Of a DNA stretch of 64,000 nt, positions 35,847 to 41,808 are shown piece after piece. Each line of letters starts with the position of its first letter. Position 1 is the stretch's first letter. Below the pieces are notes generated by a model. That model saw only the letters and a program-made list of their open reading frames with translations. It ran no database searches and was not told where the DNA came from. Origin of the DNA: Clostridiales bacterium (GTDB lineage: Bacteria; Bacillota; Clostridia; Oscillospirales; Acutalibacteraceae); contig JAAWQC010000007.1 in NCBI GenBank assembly GCA_022800315.1, positions 6,907 through 70,906 on the forward strand. The letters run 5' to 3'. The position numbers and the translations under genes were made by a program.

Positions 35847-37376
35847 ATGGAGCATGAAACCATATTGGTACTCGATTTCGGCGGACAGTACAACCAGCTG
35901 ATCGCCCGCCGTGTCCGTGATGCAGGGGTCTATTCGGTGGTCAAATCTTATAAGACCCCGCTGGCGGAGATCGAAGCCGCGGGGTACAAGGGCATCATTT
36001 TCACCGGCGGACCCAACAGCGTGTACGACGAAAAGTCCCCCCATTATACGAAGGATATCCTCTCGCTGGGGATTCCCGTGCTGGGCATCTGCTACGGGGC
36101 CCAGCTGATGGCCTGGATGCTGGACGGCAGGGTGGAGCCCGCCGCCTGCGAATACGGCAAGGCCGACGTACAGGTGGAGGAGGACAGCCTGCTGTTCAAG
36201 GGGCTGGAGCCCACCCAGCGCTGCTGGATGAGCCACACCGACTTTATCGCGGAGCCCCCGGCGGGCTTTCACGTATCGGGCACCACCGCCAGCTGCCCCT
36301 GTGCAGCGATGGAGGACCCGGCGCGGCGGCTGTACGCCGTCCAGTTCCACCCCGAGGTGAACCACACCGAAAACGGCAGCGGGATGCTGAAAAACTTCCT
36401 GTTCCGCGTGTGCGGCTGTACCGGCGACTGGAAAATGGACTCCTTCGCGGAGGAATCGGTCCGGCGCCTGAAGGAGCAGATCGGTTCGGACAAGGTGCTG
36501 TGCGCCCTGTCCGGCGGCGTCGATTCCTCGGTGGCCGCCGTGATGGTCTCCCGCGCGGTGGGCCGCCAGCTCACCTGCATCTTCGTCGATCACGGCCTGC
36601 TGCGCAAGGACGAGGGCGACATGGTGGAGCGGATGTTCACCGAGAACTACGACATCAACTTCATCCGGGTGGACGCGGCCGACCGCTTCCTCGAAAAACT
36701 GGCGGGAGTATCCGACCCCGAGCGCAAGCGCAAAATCATCGGAGAGGAATTCATCCGCGTATTCGAGGAGGAGGCCAACCGGATCGGCAAGGTCCAGTGG
36801 CTGGTGCAGGGCACCATCTATCCCGACGTGATCGAGAGCGGCAGCGACGAGGCCGCCGTCATCAAGAGCCACCACAACGTGGGCGGCCTGCCCGAGCGGA
36901 TGAATCTGAAGCTGTGCGAGCCGTTGCGTGACCTGTTCAAGGATGAGGTACGCCGCGCCGGCCTGGAGCTGGGCCTGCCCTATCACATGGTATGGCGCCA
37001 GCCCTTCCCTGGCCCCGGCCTGGCGGTGCGCTGCATCGGCGCCCTGACCCGGGAGCGTCTCGGCATCCTGCGGGAGGCGGACGCCATTTTCCGCGACGTG
37101 ATTATGGAGGCGGGGCTGGAGAAAACGGTGGGCCAGTACTTTGCCGTCATCACCGACATGCGTTCGGTGGGGGTGATGGGCGACGCCCGCACCTACGACT
37201 ACACCATCGCGCTGCGAGCGGTCTCCACCACCGACTTCATGACCGCCGACTGGGCGCGGCTCCCCCTCGACGTGCTGGCAGAGGCTTCCAGCCGCATCGT
37301 CAACGAGGTCAAGGGGGTCAACCGGGTGGTGTACGACATCACCTCCAAACCCCCGGCCACCATTGAATGGGAATGA
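35847..37376 (+). CDS. guaA: GMP synthase (glutamine-hydrolysing), full length
   Basis: Class I GATase with GICYGAQ (Cys nucleophile) and FHPEV (His/Glu), an ATP-PPase SGGVDSS P-loop, and C-terminal ...PPATIEWE. Confidence 0.95.
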
Positions 37377-37382
37377 TAAACT

Positions 37383-37430
37383 AATCCCCGGAAACCCGCA
37401 TGAATGCTGGGTTTTCGGGGATTTTTCTTT
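37383..37430 (+). terminator. Intrinsic terminator of guaA
   Basis: 15-bp stem AATCCCCGGAAACCC / GGGTTTTCGGGGATT followed by TTTTCTTTT. Confidence 0.85.
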
Positions 37431-37575: not shown

Positions 37576-37617
37576 TTGACTTTCTATGCGCACAAGAAAA
37601 TTATTGATATGCGCACA
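37576..37617 (+). promoter_or_regulatory. Candidate promoter and direct-repeat operator of RHH gene 1
   Basis: TTGACT (37576-37581), 17 nt, AATTAT. Two copies of TATGCGCACA (37585-37594 and 37608-37617) lie 23 bp apart, flanking the -10 region. Confidence 0.35.
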
Positions 37618-37634
37618 GAAAGCGAGGTGACTAA

Positions 37635-37814
37635 ATGGCGCAAAAAAGGATGGGACGTCCACCTGCAGAGAAACCCTTGAAAGACAGAATCTTTGTTTTG
37701 GTCAGCGATGAAACAAAGGATAAGCTGGAACAATGCAAAAAGGCGTGGGGATCCACAACGTCGGATATTGTTCGCAAGGGTATCGACAGGATGTACGACG
37801 ACCTGAAAAAATGA
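37635..37814 (+). CDS. Ribbon-helix-helix (CopG/MobC-like) DNA-binding protein, copy 1 (59 aa)
   Basis: Not in the track (under 60 aa). MAQKRMGRPPAEKPLKDRIFVLVSDETKDKLEQCKKAWGSTTSDIVRKGIDRMYDDLKK shows a GRP-x-beta-strand-helix-helix pattern. GAGGTGA RBS. Confidence 0.65.
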   Translation: MAQKRMGRPPAEKPLKDRIFVLVSDETKDKLEQCKKAWGSTTSDIVRKGIDRMYDDLKK

Positions 37815-37885
37815 AAGGAAACAGCGCACTCCTCATCAAAGTAACACGCCGCTTCCCCCACACAGCCGCCACAGGGGCGAACCGC
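37806..37885 (-). ncRNA. Candidate ~80-nt convergent small RNA (countertranscript) 1
   Basis: Minus strand: TTGCAG (37920-37915), 17 nt, TATACT (37897-37892). Then hairpin GGAAGCGGCG / CGCUGUUUCC (37856-37847 / 37826-37817), whose two G.U pairs are A.C mismatches on the plus strand. Then UUUCAUUUUUU over the RHH stop. Confidence 0.4.
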
Positions 37886-37921
37886 ATAAATAGTATACAC
37901 TGTGCGGCGGGTTCCTGCAAG
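37853..37921. repeat. 69-nt conserved block, copy A
   Basis: TTCCCCCACACAGCCGCCACAGGGGCGAACCGCATAAATAGTATACACTGTGCGGCGGGTTCCTGCAAG. Differs from copy B at 2 positions, while the flanks and the adjacent RHH genes are strongly diverged. Confidence 0.9.
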
Positions 37922-38015
37922 GGATTACGTATAAACAACACGGAAGGAAACTGTCGTTGTATAAAAAACGCACCATCGGAAACATAGATAGACTGTTTGA
38001 TAATAACAAAATTAT

Positions 38016-38061
38016 TGGCGGTAAAATAATACTTGATTTTATGGCGGTAATAAATTATACT
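38016..38061 (+). promoter_or_regulatory. Promoter and direct-repeat operator of RHH gene 2
   Basis: TTGATT (38033-38038), 17 nt, TATACT (38056-38061). TGGCGGTAA repeats at 38016-38024 and 38042-38050, plus a degenerate TGGCAAGGA at 38070. Confidence 0.5.
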
Positions 38062-38090
38062 TAAATTGTTGGCAAGGAAAGGGGGGATAT

Positions 38091-38261
38091 ATGCCAGGAA
38101 AAAACCGAGGGCGCCCAACTACTGATAATCCAAAGAGTTTACGAGTCGATGTACGTCTTACCCCGGAAGAACTCAAAATGCTCGATGAGTACTGTCAGAG
38201 GAAGGGCGTGTCACGCCCGCAGGGCCTGCGTGATGGCATAAAAGCCCTCAATAAAAAATGA
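38091..38261 (+). CDS. Ribbon-helix-helix (CopG/MobC-like) DNA-binding protein, copy 2 (56 aa)
   Basis: Not in the track. MPGKNRGRPTTDNPKSLRVDVRLTPEELKMLDEYCQRKGVSRPQGLRDGIKALNKK. AAAGGGGGG RBS. Confidence 0.7.
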   Translation: MPGKNRGRPTTDNPKSLRVDVRLTPEELKMLDEYCQRKGVSRPQGLRDGIKALNKK

Positions 38262-38335
38262 AAGGAAAAGTGGTGCGTTGTTGGCAAACGTACTACACCA
38301 CTTTCCCCCACACAGCCGCCACAGGGGCAGACCGC
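38253..38335 (-). ncRNA. Candidate ~83-nt convergent small RNA (countertranscript) 2
   Basis: Same minus-strand hexamers: TTGCAG (38370-38365), 17 nt, TATACT (38347-38342). Hairpin of different sequence but the same geometry (GGGAAAGUGGUG / CACCACUUUUCC, 20-nt loop as in copy 1), then UUUCAUUUUUU over the RHH-2 stop. Confidence 0.4.
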
Positions 38336-38371
38336 ATAAATAGTATACACTGTGCGGCGGGTTCCTGCAAG
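38303..38371. repeat. 69-nt conserved block, copy B
   Basis: Identical to copy A except GA to AG at 38328-38329. Lies 450 bp downstream of copy A in the same orientation. Confidence 0.9.
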
Positions 38372-38408
38372 AGGTTGTGTGCTGTCAACACGAAAGGACG
38401 GAACCCGT

Positions 38409-38684
38409 ATGGAAAACATTTTGGAATTGTTCTACGACCAGCCCTGTGCGACAATACACGGGCAGGGCTCGACCTTCGTCAGACTGGCGCGGATTAAAAA
38501 GGAACAGCTGGATATGCTGAACGCTACCCTGTCCGACGAACAAAAGGAACGGCTGGAAGCCTACTTCGACGCCGAAACCGAGATAGAAGGCATGATCGGC
38601 TTCGACCGGTTCCGGTACGCCTTCCATCTGGGGGCCCAGCTGACGGCCGAGCTGGCGCGGGGAAAAGACCTGCTGTTGCGGTAA
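38409..38684 (+). CDS. Hypothetical 91-aa helical protein
   Basis: MENILELFYDQPCATIHGQG...FDRFRYAFHLGAQLTAELARG. Start at ATG 38409 behind an AAAGGACGGA RBS; the track start 38352 lies inside the conserved block. Confidence 0.55.
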   Translation: MENILELFYDQPCATIHGQGSTFVRLARIKKEQLDMLNATLSDEQKERLEAYFDAETEIEGMIGFDRFRYAFHLGAQLTAELARGKDLLLR

Positions 38685-38771: not shown

Positions 38772-38792
38772 ATCCATCAGGAGGTGTCAACC

Positions 38793-39653
38793 ATGACGAC
38801 GATAGACAACGAAAAGGAAACGATTGAAAAGGCGGTGGCCGGCGACCGCCAGGCGCTGGAGGCCCTGCTGGGCGGGGTGCGGGACATGGTGTTCAACCTG
38901 TCCCTGCGCATGCTGGGCATGATCCCCGACGCGGAGGACGCCACGCAGGAAATCCTGATCAAGGTGATGACCCATCTCTCCTCCTTCCGTCAGGAGAGCC
39001 GCCTGTCCACCTGGGTATTCCGCATCGCGGCGAACCATCTGCGGGATTATCGGAAGGGGATGTTCGCCGCCCGTCCGCTGAGCTTCGAGGATTACGGGGA
39101 GGACATCGCCTCCGGCCGGGAAAAGGACGTGCCCGACATGAGCGGCGGCGTGGACCGCTCGCTGCTGGAGCAGGAGCTGAAGCTGTCCTGCACCAACGTC
39201 ATGCTGCAGTGCCTGGACCCCGAAAGCCGCTGCATCTACATCCTGGGCACCATGTTCCGTCTGAACAGCCGGATCGCGGCGGACATACTGGAAATGACCC
39301 CCGAGGCCTATCGTCAGAAGCTGTCCCGTGTGCGCAAAAAGATGGCGGCGTTTCTCGGCGAATACTGCGGACTAAGCGGCACCGGGACCTGTTCCTGCCG
39401 GCGCCGGGTGGACTACGCCATCGCCACCCGCCGCGTCGATCCGGCGAAACTGGGATTCCAGTCCCTGACCGCCTGCGGGTACGGCGACGTGGCGGGCTTT
39501 ACCGACGCGATGGAGGAACTGGACGAGCAGTCCCGGATCTTTGCGGAGTTCCCCGCCTACCGCTCCACCGAGAACCTGACCGAGTGGATGCGCAACCTGA
39601 TGGCCTCCCCGAGCTTTGCCGCCGTGACCGAAAGACAGGAGGCCGTGAGATGA
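38793..39653 (+). CDS. Sigma-70 family (ECF-like) RNA polymerase sigma factor with a ~95-aa Cys-containing C-terminal extension
   Basis: Region 2 (DAEDATQEILIKVMTHLSSFRQESRLSTWVFRIAANHLRDY) and region 4 (RCIYILGTMFRLNSRIAADILEMTPEAYRQKLSRVRKKM), then an extension with CGLSGTGTCSC. ATG 38793 lies 8 nt after GGAGG. Confidence 0.8.
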   Translation: MTTIDNEKETIEKAVAGDRQALEALLGGVRDMVFNLSLRMLGMIPDAEDATQEILIKVMTHLSSFRQESRLSTWVFRIAANHLRDYRKGMFAARPLSFEDYGEDIASGREKDVPDMSGGVDRSLLEQELKLSCTNVMLQCLDPESRCIYILGTMFRLNSRIAADILEMTPEAYRQKLSRVRKKMAAFLGEYCGLSGTGTCSCRRRVDYAIATRRVDPAKLGFQSLTACGYGDVAGFTDAMEELDEQSRIFAEFPAYRSTENLTEWMRNLMASPSFAAVTERQEAVR

Positions 39654-40339
39654 ACACCGCCGATATGCAGGGAATACTGGACTACCTTTCCTCCTTGGAA
39701 CAGAACAACAACCGGGAGTGGTTTCACGCCAACAAACCGCAGTACAGCGAGGCCGTCCGGTCGTTTGAAACCCTTGTCGGCGAGCTGATGGGGGCGCTGA
39801 GGGAACACGACGACAGCCTGCCGCTGACAGAGCCGAAGGAGCTGACCTTCAAGCTGATGCGGGACACCCGTTTCAGCCACGACAAATCCCCCTATAACCC
39901 CGCCTTCCGCGCCCACATTTCCTCAAAGGGCAAGCTGCCCATTCCGGTGGGCTATTTCCTGATGATTCAGCCGGGCGGGCGCTCCTTCCTCGGCGGCGGC
40001 CTGTTCGCGGACATGTTCCGTGAGGCCACCGTCCTGGTGCGGGACCATATCGCCGCCCATGGGGGCCGCTGGCAGCAAATCGTGGAGGACCCTGCCTTCA
40101 CCTCCCGTTTCACCGTGGGGGGAACGGCGCTGAAGAAGGTGCCGCAGGGCTACGACCCCGGTCATCCTCAGGCAGAATACCTGAAAAACAAGAGCTGGTA
40201 TATCGAGTATCCTCTCACCGACGCCCAGCTGCTGGACAAGGATTTTCTCCCCTTCGCGGTGGATACCTTCGTCGGGATGCAGCCCTTCAACGGCTTTTTG
40301 AACGAAGCGCTTCAGAGGTTCCAGATGCCGTCGCGATAA
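39650..40339 (+). CDS. DUF2461 (TIGR02453) family protein
   Basis: LEQNNNREWFHANKPQYSEAV..., FKLMRDTRFSHDKSPYNP..., GYFLMIQPGGRSFLGGGLF..., KKVPQGYDPGHPQAEYLKNKSW. ATGA overlap with the sigma stop. Confidence 0.85.
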   Translation: MNTADMQGILDYLSSLEQNNNREWFHANKPQYSEAVRSFETLVGELMGALREHDDSLPLTEPKELTFKLMRDTRFSHDKSPYNPAFRAHISSKGKLPIPVGYFLMIQPGGRSFLGGGLFADMFREATVLVRDHIAAHGGRWQQIVEDPAFTSRFTVGGTALKKVPQGYDPGHPQAEYLKNKSWYIEYPLTDAQLLDKDFLPFAVDTFVGMQPFNGFLNEALQRFQMPSR

Positions 40340-40445: not shown

Positions 40446-40475
40446 TTGCCAAACTCTGCCCGCATGCGTTATAGT
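40446..40475 (+). promoter_or_regulatory. Candidate promoter of the guaA paralogue
   Basis: TTGCCA (40446-40451), 18 nt, TATAGT (40470-40475). This would exclude the GTG at 40474 as a start codon. Confidence 0.35.
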
Positions 40476-40521
40476 GGAATCATACGTTAACAGTACTGGA
40501 GGAATCTTTCTGCAACAGGAT

Positions 40522-41808
40522 ATGATCGTCATCCTTGATCTGGGCAGCGAGCAGAATGCGCAGATCGCACGGGAGGTGCGCGCCCTCGGCGTGTATTCGG
40601 AAATCCATCCCCACGACATCACCGCTGACCAGCTGAAGGCACTGCCCGGCGTCCGCGGCATCATCCTCAACGGCGGCAAAAACCGCGTGGTGGACGGCGC
40701 GGCTATCGACGCGGGCGAGGCGGTTTATCAGAGCGGCCTGCCCCTGCTCACTGTGGAGCATACCGCCGGCAGCGATCTCGACCGGTGGCCCGCGGACGAC
40801 GCCGAGCGTAGGGATTGCCTCTCCCGTTTCGTGTTCGGGCGCTGCGGCGCCGCAGCCAATTGGAACATGAAGAATTTCATCGACGACCAGGTGGAGCTGA
40901 TACGCCGCCAGGTCGGGGAGCGCCAGGTCCTGCTGGCCCTGTCGGGCGGCGTGGATTCCTCGGTGGTGGCCGCCCTGCTCATCAAGGCCATCGGCAGCCA
41001 GCTCACCTGTGTCCACGTCAACCACGGCCTGCTGCGCCTCGGCGAGCCGGAGCAGGTGGTGGAGGTATTCCGGGAGCAGCTCCACGCCAACCTGATCTAT
41101 GTGGACGCCAGCAAGCGCTTTCTCGATAAGCTGGCGGGGGTAGCCGAACCGGAGAAGAAACGGAAAATCATCGGCACGGAATTTATCCGCGTGTTCGAGG
41201 AGGAGGCCCGCCGGCTGCAGGGCATCGACTTCCTCGCCCAAGGCACCATCTATCCCGATATCGTGGAGAGCGGCACCAAAACCGCCAAGGTGGTCAAATC
41301 CCATCACAACGTGGGCGGCCTGCCGGAGGATATGCAGTTCGAGCTGGTGGAACCGCTGAAAATGCTGTTCAAGGACGAGGTGCGCGCCTGCGGCGTCGAG
41401 CTGGGCCTGCCCGAGGGCATGGTATACCGGCAGCCCTTCCCCGGCCCCGGACTCGGCGTGCGCTGCCTGGGCGCCATCACGGCCGACCGGCTGGAGGCCG
41501 TCCGCCACTCCGACGCCATCCTGCGGGAGGAATTCGCCGCCGCCGGCCTCGACCGAACGGTGTGGCAGTATTTTACCGTCGTGCCCGACCTCAAGTCGGT
41601 GGGCGTGCGGGACAACGCCCGCTGCGTCGAATACCCGGTCATCCTGCGCGCGGTCAACACGGTGGACGCCATGACCGCCACGGTGGAGGACGTCCCGTTC
41701 CCCCTGTTGCAGAAAATTACCGCCCGTATCGTCAGCGAGGTGGCAGGGGTCAACCGTGTACTGTACGATCTGACACCCAAGCCCACCGCCACCATTGAGT
41801 GGGAATAA
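40522..41808 (+). CDS. GMP synthase paralogue: intact ATP-pyrophosphatase and dimerisation domains, truncated and degenerate glutaminase domain
   Basis: SGGVDSS P-loop and C-terminal ...TATIEWE are conserved (by eye ~60% identity to guaA over the synthetase part). The N-domain is ~110 aa, with GLPLLTVEHTAG in place of [12 protein letters not shown] and the His/Glu segment missing. Confidence 0.8.
   Translation: MIVILDLGSEQNAQIAREVRALGVYSEIHPHDITADQLKALPGVRGIILNGGKNRVVDGAAIDAGEAVYQSGLPLLTVEHTAGSDLDRWPADDAERRDCLSRFVFGRCGAAANWNMKNFIDDQVELIRRQVGERQVLLALSGGVDSSVVAALLIKAIGSQLTCVHVNHGLLRLGEPEQVVEVFREQLHANLIYVDASKRFLDKLAGVAEPEKKRKIIGTEFIRVFEEEARRLQGIDFLAQGTIYPDIVESGTKTAKVVKSHHNVGGLPEDMQFELVEPLKMLFKDEVRACGVELGLPEGMVYRQPFPGPGLGVRCLGAITADRLEAVRHSDAILREEFAAAGLDRTVWQYFTVVPDLKSVGVRDNARCVEYPVILRAVNTVDAMTATVEDVPFPLLQKITARIVSEVAGVNRVLYDLTPKPTATIEWE

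Follow-up and report, generated by a model that had tools for sequence, protein, structure and literature searches.

Candidate antisense RNA genes at the junction between ribbon-helix-helix repressor genes and small-protein genes in Clostridia and in phages of Firmicutes

The stretch analysed here comprises 64,000 nt of contig JAAWQC010000007.1 from a Clostridiales bacterium and is referred to as the window. It carries two small ribbon-helix-helix (RHH) repressor genes, RHH1 and RHH2, each followed by one copy of a repeated block. Each block is probably the gene for a cis-antisense RNA, or countertranscript, of about 80 nt, which runs from the opposite strand into the end of the RHH gene and holds down the next gene. 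The predicted anatomy of this small RNA (sRNA), its conservation, its covariation and its strand are supported by comparison with other loci.

RHH1 (37635-37814, plus strand) encodes a ribbon-helix-helix repressor of 59 amino acids with an N-terminal GRP arm. It matches phrog_876, 'transcriptional repressor', at 2e-11, and has a weak match to Pfam RHH_1. RHH2 (38091-38261, plus strand) encodes a repressor of 56 amino acids with an RGRP arm, matches phrog_876 at 1e-11, and has homologues in 157 clusters in gut Clostridia. The first-pass annotation of this DNA put the two proteins at about 30% identity, and global alignment agrees (20 identities over 67 columns, ~30%); BLASTP returned no local alignment between the two. 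The RHH proteins of all loci have an N-terminal arm with a conserved (R/M)GRP(T/P)xxNPK ahead of the RHH β-strand (37635-37680 and 38091-38135 in the window), and this arm recalls an AT-hook (RGRP). A 10-nt direct repeat is found on both sides of RHH2.

The promoter of RHH1 consists of TTGACT (37576-37581) and AATTAT (37599-37604), and is accompanied by two copies of the operator repeat TATGCGCACA (37585-37594 and 37608-37617), all on the plus strand. The promoter of RHH2, also on the plus strand, consists of TTGATT (38033-38038) and TATACT (38056-38061), with two copies of TGGCGGTAA (38016-38024 and 38042-38050). An operator made of direct repeats had been proposed for each gene; the window contains both, and each RHH subfamily conserves its own. 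RHH1-like genes elsewhere have two TGCGCA-core palindromes with the promoter positions unchanged. RHH2-like genes keep TTGGCGGTAA twice, on either side of the -35 box, a layout found in about 25 loci, and the operator variants TGTCGGTAA and TGACGGTAA switch together with the protein. The profile matches fit the fold of an RHH repressor and the conserved direct repeats, which are predicted operators, overlap the promoters. The RHH proteins are predicted to regulate their own genes through these repeats.

The repeated block is a 96-nt direct repeat (37853-37948 and 38303-38398) with 88% identity between the copies. It had been described as a block of 69 nt with two differences; the first 69 nt do differ at only 2 positions, and the full repeat is longer. 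Its 40-nt core occurs only twice in the window, with 0 occurrences expected by chance. The earlier observation that both RHH genes end in the same AAAAAATGAAAGGAAA is borne out by the window sequence. Copy 2 is followed by a gene for a DUF6809 protein of 91 amino acids (38409-38684, plus strand; Pfam PF20648 at 2e-13). The tail of copy 1 (37921-37948, plus strand) ends in ACACGGAAGGA, which resembles a Shine-Dalgarno (SD) sequence, with no gene after it, and looks like the leader remnant of a lost downstream gene.

Read on the minus strand, each copy has the order TTGCAG, 17 nt, TATACT, ATTT, a 28-nt hairpin (P1), GGG, a 40-43-nt hairpin (P2) and the U tract UUUCAUUUUUU, which lies over the final Lys codons and the stop codon of the RHH gene. 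In sRNA copy 1 (37804-37887, minus strand), TTGCAG is at 37915-37920 and TATACT at 37892-37897, with 17 nt between them. The predicted 5' end is at 37885-37887, P1 at 37860-37887, P2 at 37817-37856, and the U tract at 37806-37816, overlapping the RHH1 stop codon. In sRNA copy 2 (38251-38337, minus strand), the corresponding positions are 38365-38370 and 38342-38347 for the two promoter hexamers, again 17 nt apart, 38335-38337 for the predicted 5' end, 38310-38337 for P1, and 38264-38306 for P2, whose loop contains the motif GUUUGCCAACAAC (38277-38289). Its U tract (38253-38263) overlaps the RHH2 stop codon. A covariance model, R1, was built from 48 sequences with the window copies left out. 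It finds exactly two sites over the whole window, both on the minus strand, with 49.1 bits for copy 1 (E=7e-12) and 36.6 bits for copy 2 (E=3e-8). The minus-strand promoter proposed before is located by coordinates in both copies, and it is kept in related loci; the roughly 30 conserved nucleotides after it, which had been taken for a plain stretch, are actually hairpin P1. Two convergent minus-strand RNAs of about 80 nt had been predicted, and this prediction has strong support from comparison with other loci. The units display the sequence features expected of the class of cis-encoded antisense RNAs, namely an own promoter, a defined terminator, a conserved structure and full complementarity to the mRNA of the opposite strand.

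Both hairpins covary across related loci, which extends the compensatory change that had been noticed in a single stem. In an RNAalifold analysis of a MAFFT alignment of 114 sequences, P2 has compensatory changes at 10/10 pairs, and one pair of this alignment reads UG in 38, UA in 35 and CG in 35 cases. Only P2 is recovered there, since P1 is misaligned across length classes, and a single length class was used instead for the two hairpins together. In that MAFFT alignment, which was not fitted to the structure, P1 and P2 (21 pairs) are 89% paired, compared with 38-57% when the partner is slid, and double changes occur in 15/21 pairs, with 0/500 shuffles as good. P1 alone has double changes in 7/11 pairs in the single length class and in 11/11 in a protein-anchored set of loci; the latter has them in 21/21 pairs overall, in an alignment that was fitted to the model. 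YUNR-type loops make up 78 of the 114 P1 loops.

The strand is assigned as minus because G·U pairs are frequent on the sRNA strand; these would read A·C on the RHH strand. The restriction of the wobble pairs to the minus strand, which had been observed for the two window copies, holds in related loci, as does the U tract. The mean minimum free energy is -36.4 kcal/mol for the sRNA strand and -22.4 kcal/mol for the other, a difference of 14 kcal/mol, and the sRNA strand folds better in 113/114 sequences. The promoter has the family consensus CTTGAAAGG..GCGCATGnTATAATATTT; in the family it takes the near-consensus form TTGAAA-17-(TGn)TATAAT, and its hexamers are kept in related loci while the spacer sequence varies. 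The consensus just 5' of the R1 matches in the protein-anchored set is CTTGAAAGGA..GCGCATGnTATAATATTT, in a search whose model excluded the promoter. TTGNNN is present in 43/51 and the TG of an extended -10 box in 38/51 members of this set.

These strand properties bear on the idea that the block is a cis-regulatory leader of the DUF6809 gene on the plus strand, similar to an attenuator or riboswitch, with no minus-strand RNA at all. The plus-strand leader does appear structured, with a predicted masking of the SD sequence and an inverted repeat around the -10 box of the sRNA promoter. The many stem G·U pairs would nevertheless become A·C on this strand, the fold is 14 kcal/mol worse, the promoter and U tract exist on the minus strand only, and no small-protein gene follows copy 1 or the inner members of tandem arrays. 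A leader of this type is highly improbable. A plus-strand terminator was also considered and rejected, as there is no U tract.

The block could in principle encode a small protein, from a plus-strand open reading frame (ORF) with an ATGA overlap (MKGK...) or from a minus-strand ORF, and both window copies are indeed open in one plus-strand frame from the RHH stop codon. The homologues already refute this proposal, and next to nothing speaks for it any longer: they read TAA or TAAG with no ATG, the distance from the -10 box to P2 varies between 31 and 45 nt without keeping a reading frame, and conservation tracks base pairing rather than codons. The lost plus-strand ATG and the block lengths, whose differences are not divisible by 3, also answer the check for a coding signature suggested in the first-pass annotation.

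The pattern formed by the promoter and the first 8 nt of the RNA is present in more than 119 genome stretches, as a lower bound, with 135 distinct sequences among the matches listed. All matches listed are from Clostridia, except the false positives L065 and L104 and a 1.4-kb contig of a metagenome-assembled genome labelled Bacteroides (L041). The carriers among them include Oscillospiraceae/Ruminococcaceae, Lachnospiraceae, Christensenella, Hungatella, Anaerotruncus and Acetatifactor. An RHH-type ORF of 36-123 amino acids lies on the opposite strand and ends inside the 3' end of the sRNA in 132/153 of the matches listed. The 105 distinct proteins of these ORFs are nearly all RHH proteins with a GRPxxxNPK-like N-terminal arm, and are otherwise very diverse. 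The block had to be checked as a possible widespread repeat unrelated to RHH genes; it is widespread yet tied to them, by the same 132/153 count.

Loci fetched by protein alone show the same association. RHH2-anchored loci always have a DUF6809-type gene about 150 nt after the RHH gene, and the gap always contains the minus-strand unit, with a promoter that is usually better than that of the window (TTGCAA/TTGAAA-17-(TGn)TATAAT). Among 80 metagenome loci picked by the peptide MGRPTDNP, 48 have an R1 match antisense to the RHH 3' end, and about 16 more have a similar diverged unit as judged by eye. An alignment of 21 DUF6809 sequences was too diverse as a search seed and the RHH protein was used in its place; the loci anchored on the closest DUF6809 relatives have the RNA in 4/4 usable cases, once as a tandem pair.

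RHH2 was compared by tblastn with sequenced phages and found relatives in Javan489 (Streptococcus pyogenes), Javan190 (S. equi), Javan570 (S. suis) and the Fusobacterium phage phiFN37. All four have the order RHH gene, a gap of 82-130 nt, a gene for a protein of 55-82 amino acids, and an antirepressor gene. Bro-N and ANT domains are confirmed in the Javan489 antirepressor, and the phiFN37 gene at this position is annotated as Rha family. The minus strand of the phage gaps contains TTGAAA, 17 or 18 nt, TGaTATAAT, (AG)ATTT, P1, P2 and, over the RHH stop codon, a U tract; these streptococcal and Fusobacterium variants are not detected by model R1. A generic promoter scan of IMG/VR gave 128 matches, 28 with the RHH architecture, about 26 of which seem genuine; most of the remaining matches are unrelated strong promoters. 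The contigs with the architecture are mostly streptococcal-type phages, with a common promoter and P1; their RHH proteins and P2 stems are of at least five different kinds.

Promoter and P1 are nearly identical within arrays of modules (the window, L037, L086, L097, L103, L105, L117, L120 and L221) and across the streptococcal-type phage contigs L237-L326, while P2 stems and RHH proteins are highly varied, a pattern that suggests an exchange of cassettes, or gene conversion, at the conserved block. The same near-identity next to different RHH genes, together with the 10-nt direct repeat that flanks RHH2, would fit an element that recombines or repeats, for instance the boundary of a cassette or a relative of miniature inverted-repeat transposable elements, conserved through mobility and not through RNA function. 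That explanation is most improbable as a whole. The place and orientation of the block relative to the RHH gene are constant, its stems covary with G·U pairs on one strand only, and the mismatches between the copies of the flanking repeat are transitions that preserve U·G pairing.

The recurring order is RHH gene, sRNA and small-protein gene (DUF6809 or others), and the gene after the RNA begins 25-45 nt past the sRNA -35 box. The downstream families include DUF6809, often as two consecutive genes, a family of ~92-109 amino acids ending in YRQGLRDCV.LL..LG, one of ~93-105 amino acids with IIRQL..EPLDASYTV..AVLQAL, one of 140-237 amino acids, or another RHH module. Two or three RHH-sRNA modules in a row, ahead of a single small-protein gene, are found in L036, L037, L074, L086, L097, L103, L105, L115-L117, L120 and L221; the layout of the window is therefore a standard one. 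The module had also been linked to the operon of an extracytoplasmic function (ECF) sigma factor downstream. This link is not supported: the sigma and DUF2461 genes are absent in the 4 usable loci of the closest DUF6809 relatives. Some loci clearly resemble integrative and conjugative or integrative and mobilizable elements (ICE/IME), with Sigma70_r4 plus HTH_16 genes, MobC, a relaxase, a serine recombinase or ImmR/ImmA-like pairs, and other loci are islets amid housekeeping genes. This survey of gene context is rough, being based on greedy ORF maps that drop small genes under spurious long ORFs in high-GC loci. A skipping-rope RNA (L097:701-772), a 6S RNA (L105:4551-4741), and tetrahydrofolate (L036:6386-6481) and flavin mononucleotide (L103:4011-4126) riboswitches lie a few kb from modules, and many modules are therefore in ordinary chromosomal neighbourhoods.

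Small, multi-copy and often orphan modules beside housekeeping genes are also what a toxin-antitoxin system would offer, with the RNA as a type I or type III antitoxin to a DUF6809 toxin, or with the RHH protein, a common antitoxin fold, and DUF6809 as a type II pair. The proteins do not fit this role. DUF6809 (91 amino acids) is a soluble-looking hairpin of amphipathic helices and not a short hydrophobic peptide as in type I systems, and the RHH proteins are minimal (50-60 amino acids), with no room for a toxin-binding tail. Unrelated families or another RHH gene can moreover replace the downstream gene, and the phage versions lead into an antirepressor. A toxin-antitoxin function is very unlikely.

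The proposed mechanism joins two levels of control. The RHH protein would repress the operon promoter through the direct-repeat operators. A strong sigma-70-type promoter facing the RHH gene would give a transcript with two hairpins, P1 and P2, and an intrinsic terminator over the RHH stop codon. This RNA would be fully complementary to the operon mRNA between the RHH gene and the next gene, and would act post-transcriptionally to hold the next gene down. Its pairing with the mRNA of the RHH gene and the following gene is inferred from the perfect, cis-encoded complementarity. In the window this gated gene would be DUF6809 and in other loci a different small protein, with an antirepressor added to the small protein in phages. 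Its expression would be confined to a burst, such as when the operon is first transcribed in a newly entered cell that has neither the repressor nor the RNA. In most loci the predicted 5' end of the sRNA is 55-90 nt upstream of the start codon of the next gene (38337 and AUG 38409 in the window), and in the window about 58 nt separate the end of the RNA from the SD sequence (38337 and ~38395). Direct occlusion of the ribosome site is therefore excluded and the control must be indirect.

A switch in the mRNA leader may provide this indirect control. In the free mRNA, the complement of the P1 5' arm would pair with the sRNA promoter spacer and -35 region, which acts as an anti-SD sequence (UCCUUUC-like); binding of the sRNA would release the anti-SD sequence, which would then mask the ribosome site of the downstream gene. 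In folding predictions for 88 leaders, the unpaired probability of the SD sequence falls from 0.61 in the free leader to 0.33 when the 85 nt complementary to the sRNA are blocked (down in 75, up in 2). The native upstream sequence keeps the SD sequence more open than dinucleotide shuffles do (0.61 vs 0.37; higher in 74/88, p=1e-15). The competitor segment is the complement of sRNA nucleotides 5-20, and the anti-SD sequence lies in the promoter spacer and -35 region, where UCCUUUC is the complement of the TTGAAAGGA -35 box. Cognate duplexes of anti-SD and SD are stronger than non-cognate ones (-12.4 vs -10.6 kcal/mol), and 0/2,000 permutations are as good. In the window, the predicted helix of the blocked state pairs CGGGUUCC (38358-38365) with GGAACCCG (38400-38407) on the plus strand; it would abut the SD sequence and AUG of DUF6809, and its 5' arm falls within the sRNA promoter spacer and -35 region. 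A reading of this helix (38358-38407) as a hairpin resembling an iron-responsive element is spurious.

An inverted repeat around the sRNA -10 box (38326-38358 in the window) covaries across phyla, with GCGGCG/CGCTGC, CCGCA/TGCGG, ACATG/CATGT and CTTATG/CATAAG as examples, and shows 56% Watson-Crick pairing compared with 20-30% when slid. It joins the promoter spacer, which forms the left arm, to the first RNA nucleotides. The left arm is untranscribed in the sRNA; as RNA, this helix is therefore possible only in the mRNA, and it is one of the points in favour of the leader switch.

A second contact is predicted for the RHH2 subfamily, including window copy 2, in which the P2 loop would pair with the 5' leader of the RHH gene beside its SD sequence. 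The leader motif ATTGTTGGCAAGG (38065-38077, plus strand) lies just 5' of the SD sequence, close to where the transcript is predicted to start, and has its complement in the apical loop GUUUGCCAACAAC of sRNA copy 2 (38289 to 38277, minus strand). Loop and leader change together in 22/23 distinct RHH2-like modules, and the mismatches are U·G. In the comparison of cognate with permuted pairs, 0/3,000 permutations are as good for RHH2-like modules, and the opposite-strand control is weak (p=0.03). The sequence TTGTTGGCAA was considered as a third operator and rejected, as it is constant across the operator variants and changes with the P2 loop.

Convergent transcription by itself might give the same outcome, if the sRNA promoter blocks or collides with the polymerase coming from the RHH promoter and the RNA product has no role. 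Between 25 and 45 nt separate the near-consensus promoter from the start codon of the next gene, and a short terminated transcript would suffice for such interference. The conservation of the RNA itself goes beyond this need: P1 is not required for termination and still covaries (7/11 and 11/11 pairs), and the P2 loop covaries with the RHH leader. Interference as the whole explanation is unlikely. The two effects are non-exclusive, and transcriptional interference from the strong convergent promoter may well add to, and probably does add to, the action of the RNA.

Several observations weigh against control of the next gene by the antisense RNA. Support for the RNA is purely comparative in every member, so that its production is a prediction, and the leader switch as a mechanism, like the loop-leader pairing, is inferred, in the case of the switch from thermodynamic prediction. 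In window copy 2 the predicted change at the SD sequence is small (0.53 to 0.43), and window copy 1 has no gene to gate. The exceptions in the inverted repeat at the -10 box are G·T and A·C in about equal number and do not clearly point to the mRNA strand, and this repeat could be a DNA operator instead. The loop-leader covariation is significant in the RHH2-like subfamily only (p=0.07 in the others), and the contact is absent in 3/4 phage examples, with Javan489 showing it. The loci of the genome scan were chosen by the promoter pattern and are a biased set; the protein-anchored sets answer this bias only partly, as model R1 misses diverged variants. One RHH clade, with GRPIHVRLDAEAD, is entirely without the sRNA (metagenome loci L189-L214, for example L190 and L209). 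In L190 and L209, the RHH gene of this clade is directly followed by repeats GATCACCCCCGCGTGTGCGGGGAAAAC that resemble those of CRISPR arrays.

A more speculative extension, and a doubtful one at present, is that the RNA serves as an immunity determinant with coded specificity. The promoter and P1 would be a shared scaffold, and the variable P2 loop with the matching RHH leader, along with the RHH protein and its operator, would sort phages and integrative elements into immunity or incompatibility groups. If this were true, orphan and tandem RHH-sRNA arrays in chromosomes, that of the window included, would be retained to shut down the early genes of incoming relatives, and such arrays would be an 'immunity island' of repressor plus antisense RNA, a defence against mobile elements.

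In the window, the DUF6809 gene is followed by the gene of an ECF-type sigma factor (38784-39653), which exceeds the cut-off of TIGR02937, and by a DUF2461 gene (about 39650-40339). The AlphaFold2 model of DUF6809 is a helical hairpin (predicted local distance difference test score, pLDDT, 83). A Foldseek comparison of this model with the Protein Data Bank gave no fold match, and PHROGs and NCBIfam returned nothing for the protein. The sole match of a DUF6809 protein in the plasmid collection is at OY725877.1 219727-219972, an unannotated part of a large mobilizable replicon (267 kb) from Subdoligranulum variabile. Two guaA-like genes (35847-37376 and 40474-41808) lie on either side of the 3-kb islet, which has a GC content of 53% compared with about 62%. 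The second encodes 444 amino acids, with a divergent amidotransferase part at the N-terminus. A DUF6809 relative is close to guaB in L221. Just past guaA, at 37383-37427, a 15-bp GC-rich inverted repeat is followed by a T run; together they form an ordinary intrinsic terminator and insulate the islet from guaA.

The RNA has no counterpart in the collections searched. Rfam 15 gave no match at the sRNA positions in the window (chance hits only, with E up to 10), and no sRNA match in 17 loci at the gathering score or in the 4 phage loci. A blastn search with the 861-nt region gave no match among plasmid or phage sequences, and the exact 40-mer core found nothing in viral contigs. Within the limited literature collection searched, no paper was found on DUF6809 or containing the sRNA sequence, on an RHH gene with an antisense RNA in Clostridia or conjugative elements, or on an antirepressor with an antisense RNA in Streptococcus prophages. 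These results point to a large uncatalogued family of putative antisense RNAs in temperate phages and integrative elements of Firmicutes, and also in a Fusobacterium phage.

Gates made of a repressor and a countertranscript are textbook cases in P22 and small plasmids, known from a few unrelated systems. Circuits of this kind have long been familiar, and the module is a new variant and not a new principle. What the comparison adds is a single structured RNA family with at least well over a hundred members in gut Clostridia, streptococcal prophages and a Fusobacterium phage, always at the same junction and, in phages, upstream of an antirepressor. If transcribed as predicted, it would act as a general switch by which temperate phages and integrative elements of Firmicutes are induced or become established. 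The family also offers an entry point to the DUF6809-type proteins, which are uncharacterised, and many natural variants for the study of how antisense specificity evolves. An entry in RNA family libraries would end the annotation of these loci as empty intergenic DNA.

The first-pass annotation compared the module with CopG and RNAII of plasmid pMV158, and this analogy is a fair one. In pMV158 the RHH repressor gene is co-transcribed with the downstream gene, as is predicted for the module, and in both the countertranscript gene is intergenic and lies on the opposite strand, where it has a promoter of its own and an intrinsic terminator. The pMV158 RNAII inhibits translation by pairing immediately upstream of the signals for it; this RNA is 48 nt long and has a single hairpin preceded by a single-stranded 5' tail of 17 nt. 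In contrast, the module RNA has about 80 nt, two hairpins and a paired 5' end. The target in pMV158 is the Rep initiator, and the window has none, as the first-pass annotation stated; profile matches identify the downstream gene as DUF6809. The module also differs in its tandem arrays and in its location in chromosomes, ICE/IME-like elements and phages rather than on a rolling-circle plasmid.

The antisense RNA of plasmid R1 acts indirectly, from a binding site well upstream of the place where ribosomes load on the controlled gene. R1 shares the YUNR-type loops seen in most P1 loops of the module. It differs in its use of a leader peptide and translational coupling, where a masking helix is predicted for the module, and the module has no replication function and no homology to R1. 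According to PMC5717011, the R1 repressor gene (CopB) is co-transcribed with the controlled gene, and to that extent the CopB/CopA-CopT/tap-repA system also shares the operon layout.

The arc-sar-ant region (immI) of phage P22 appears to be at least as close an analogue as pMV158 CopG/RNAII, and functionally the closer one, because the phage members of the family precede an antirepressor. A small RHH repressor gene (arc in P22) is first in the operon in both. In P22 a short hairpin-rich antisense RNA with a promoter inside the operon runs convergently and holds the downstream gene down, and the same is predicted for the module. The P22 sar RNA, reportedly described by Liao and co-workers in 1987, is said to hold down ant in this manner. 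Relatives in Streptococcus phages likewise lead into an antirepressor with Bro-N and ANT domains. The sar RNA pairs with the ant mRNA and blocks ant translation, and this pairing reportedly spans the ant ribosome site, whereas the module RNA ends ~58 nt upstream of the SD sequence and does not cover it. There is no sequence or Rfam relation to sar, the module RHH proteins have the N-terminal GRP arm, and a small extra protein always comes first in the module. The window, with DUF6809, ECF sigma and DUF2461, and most Clostridia are without an antirepressor, which only the phage relatives have. By analogy, the module would work like P22 arc-sar-ant and pMV158 CopG-RNAII-repB, as a member of neither.

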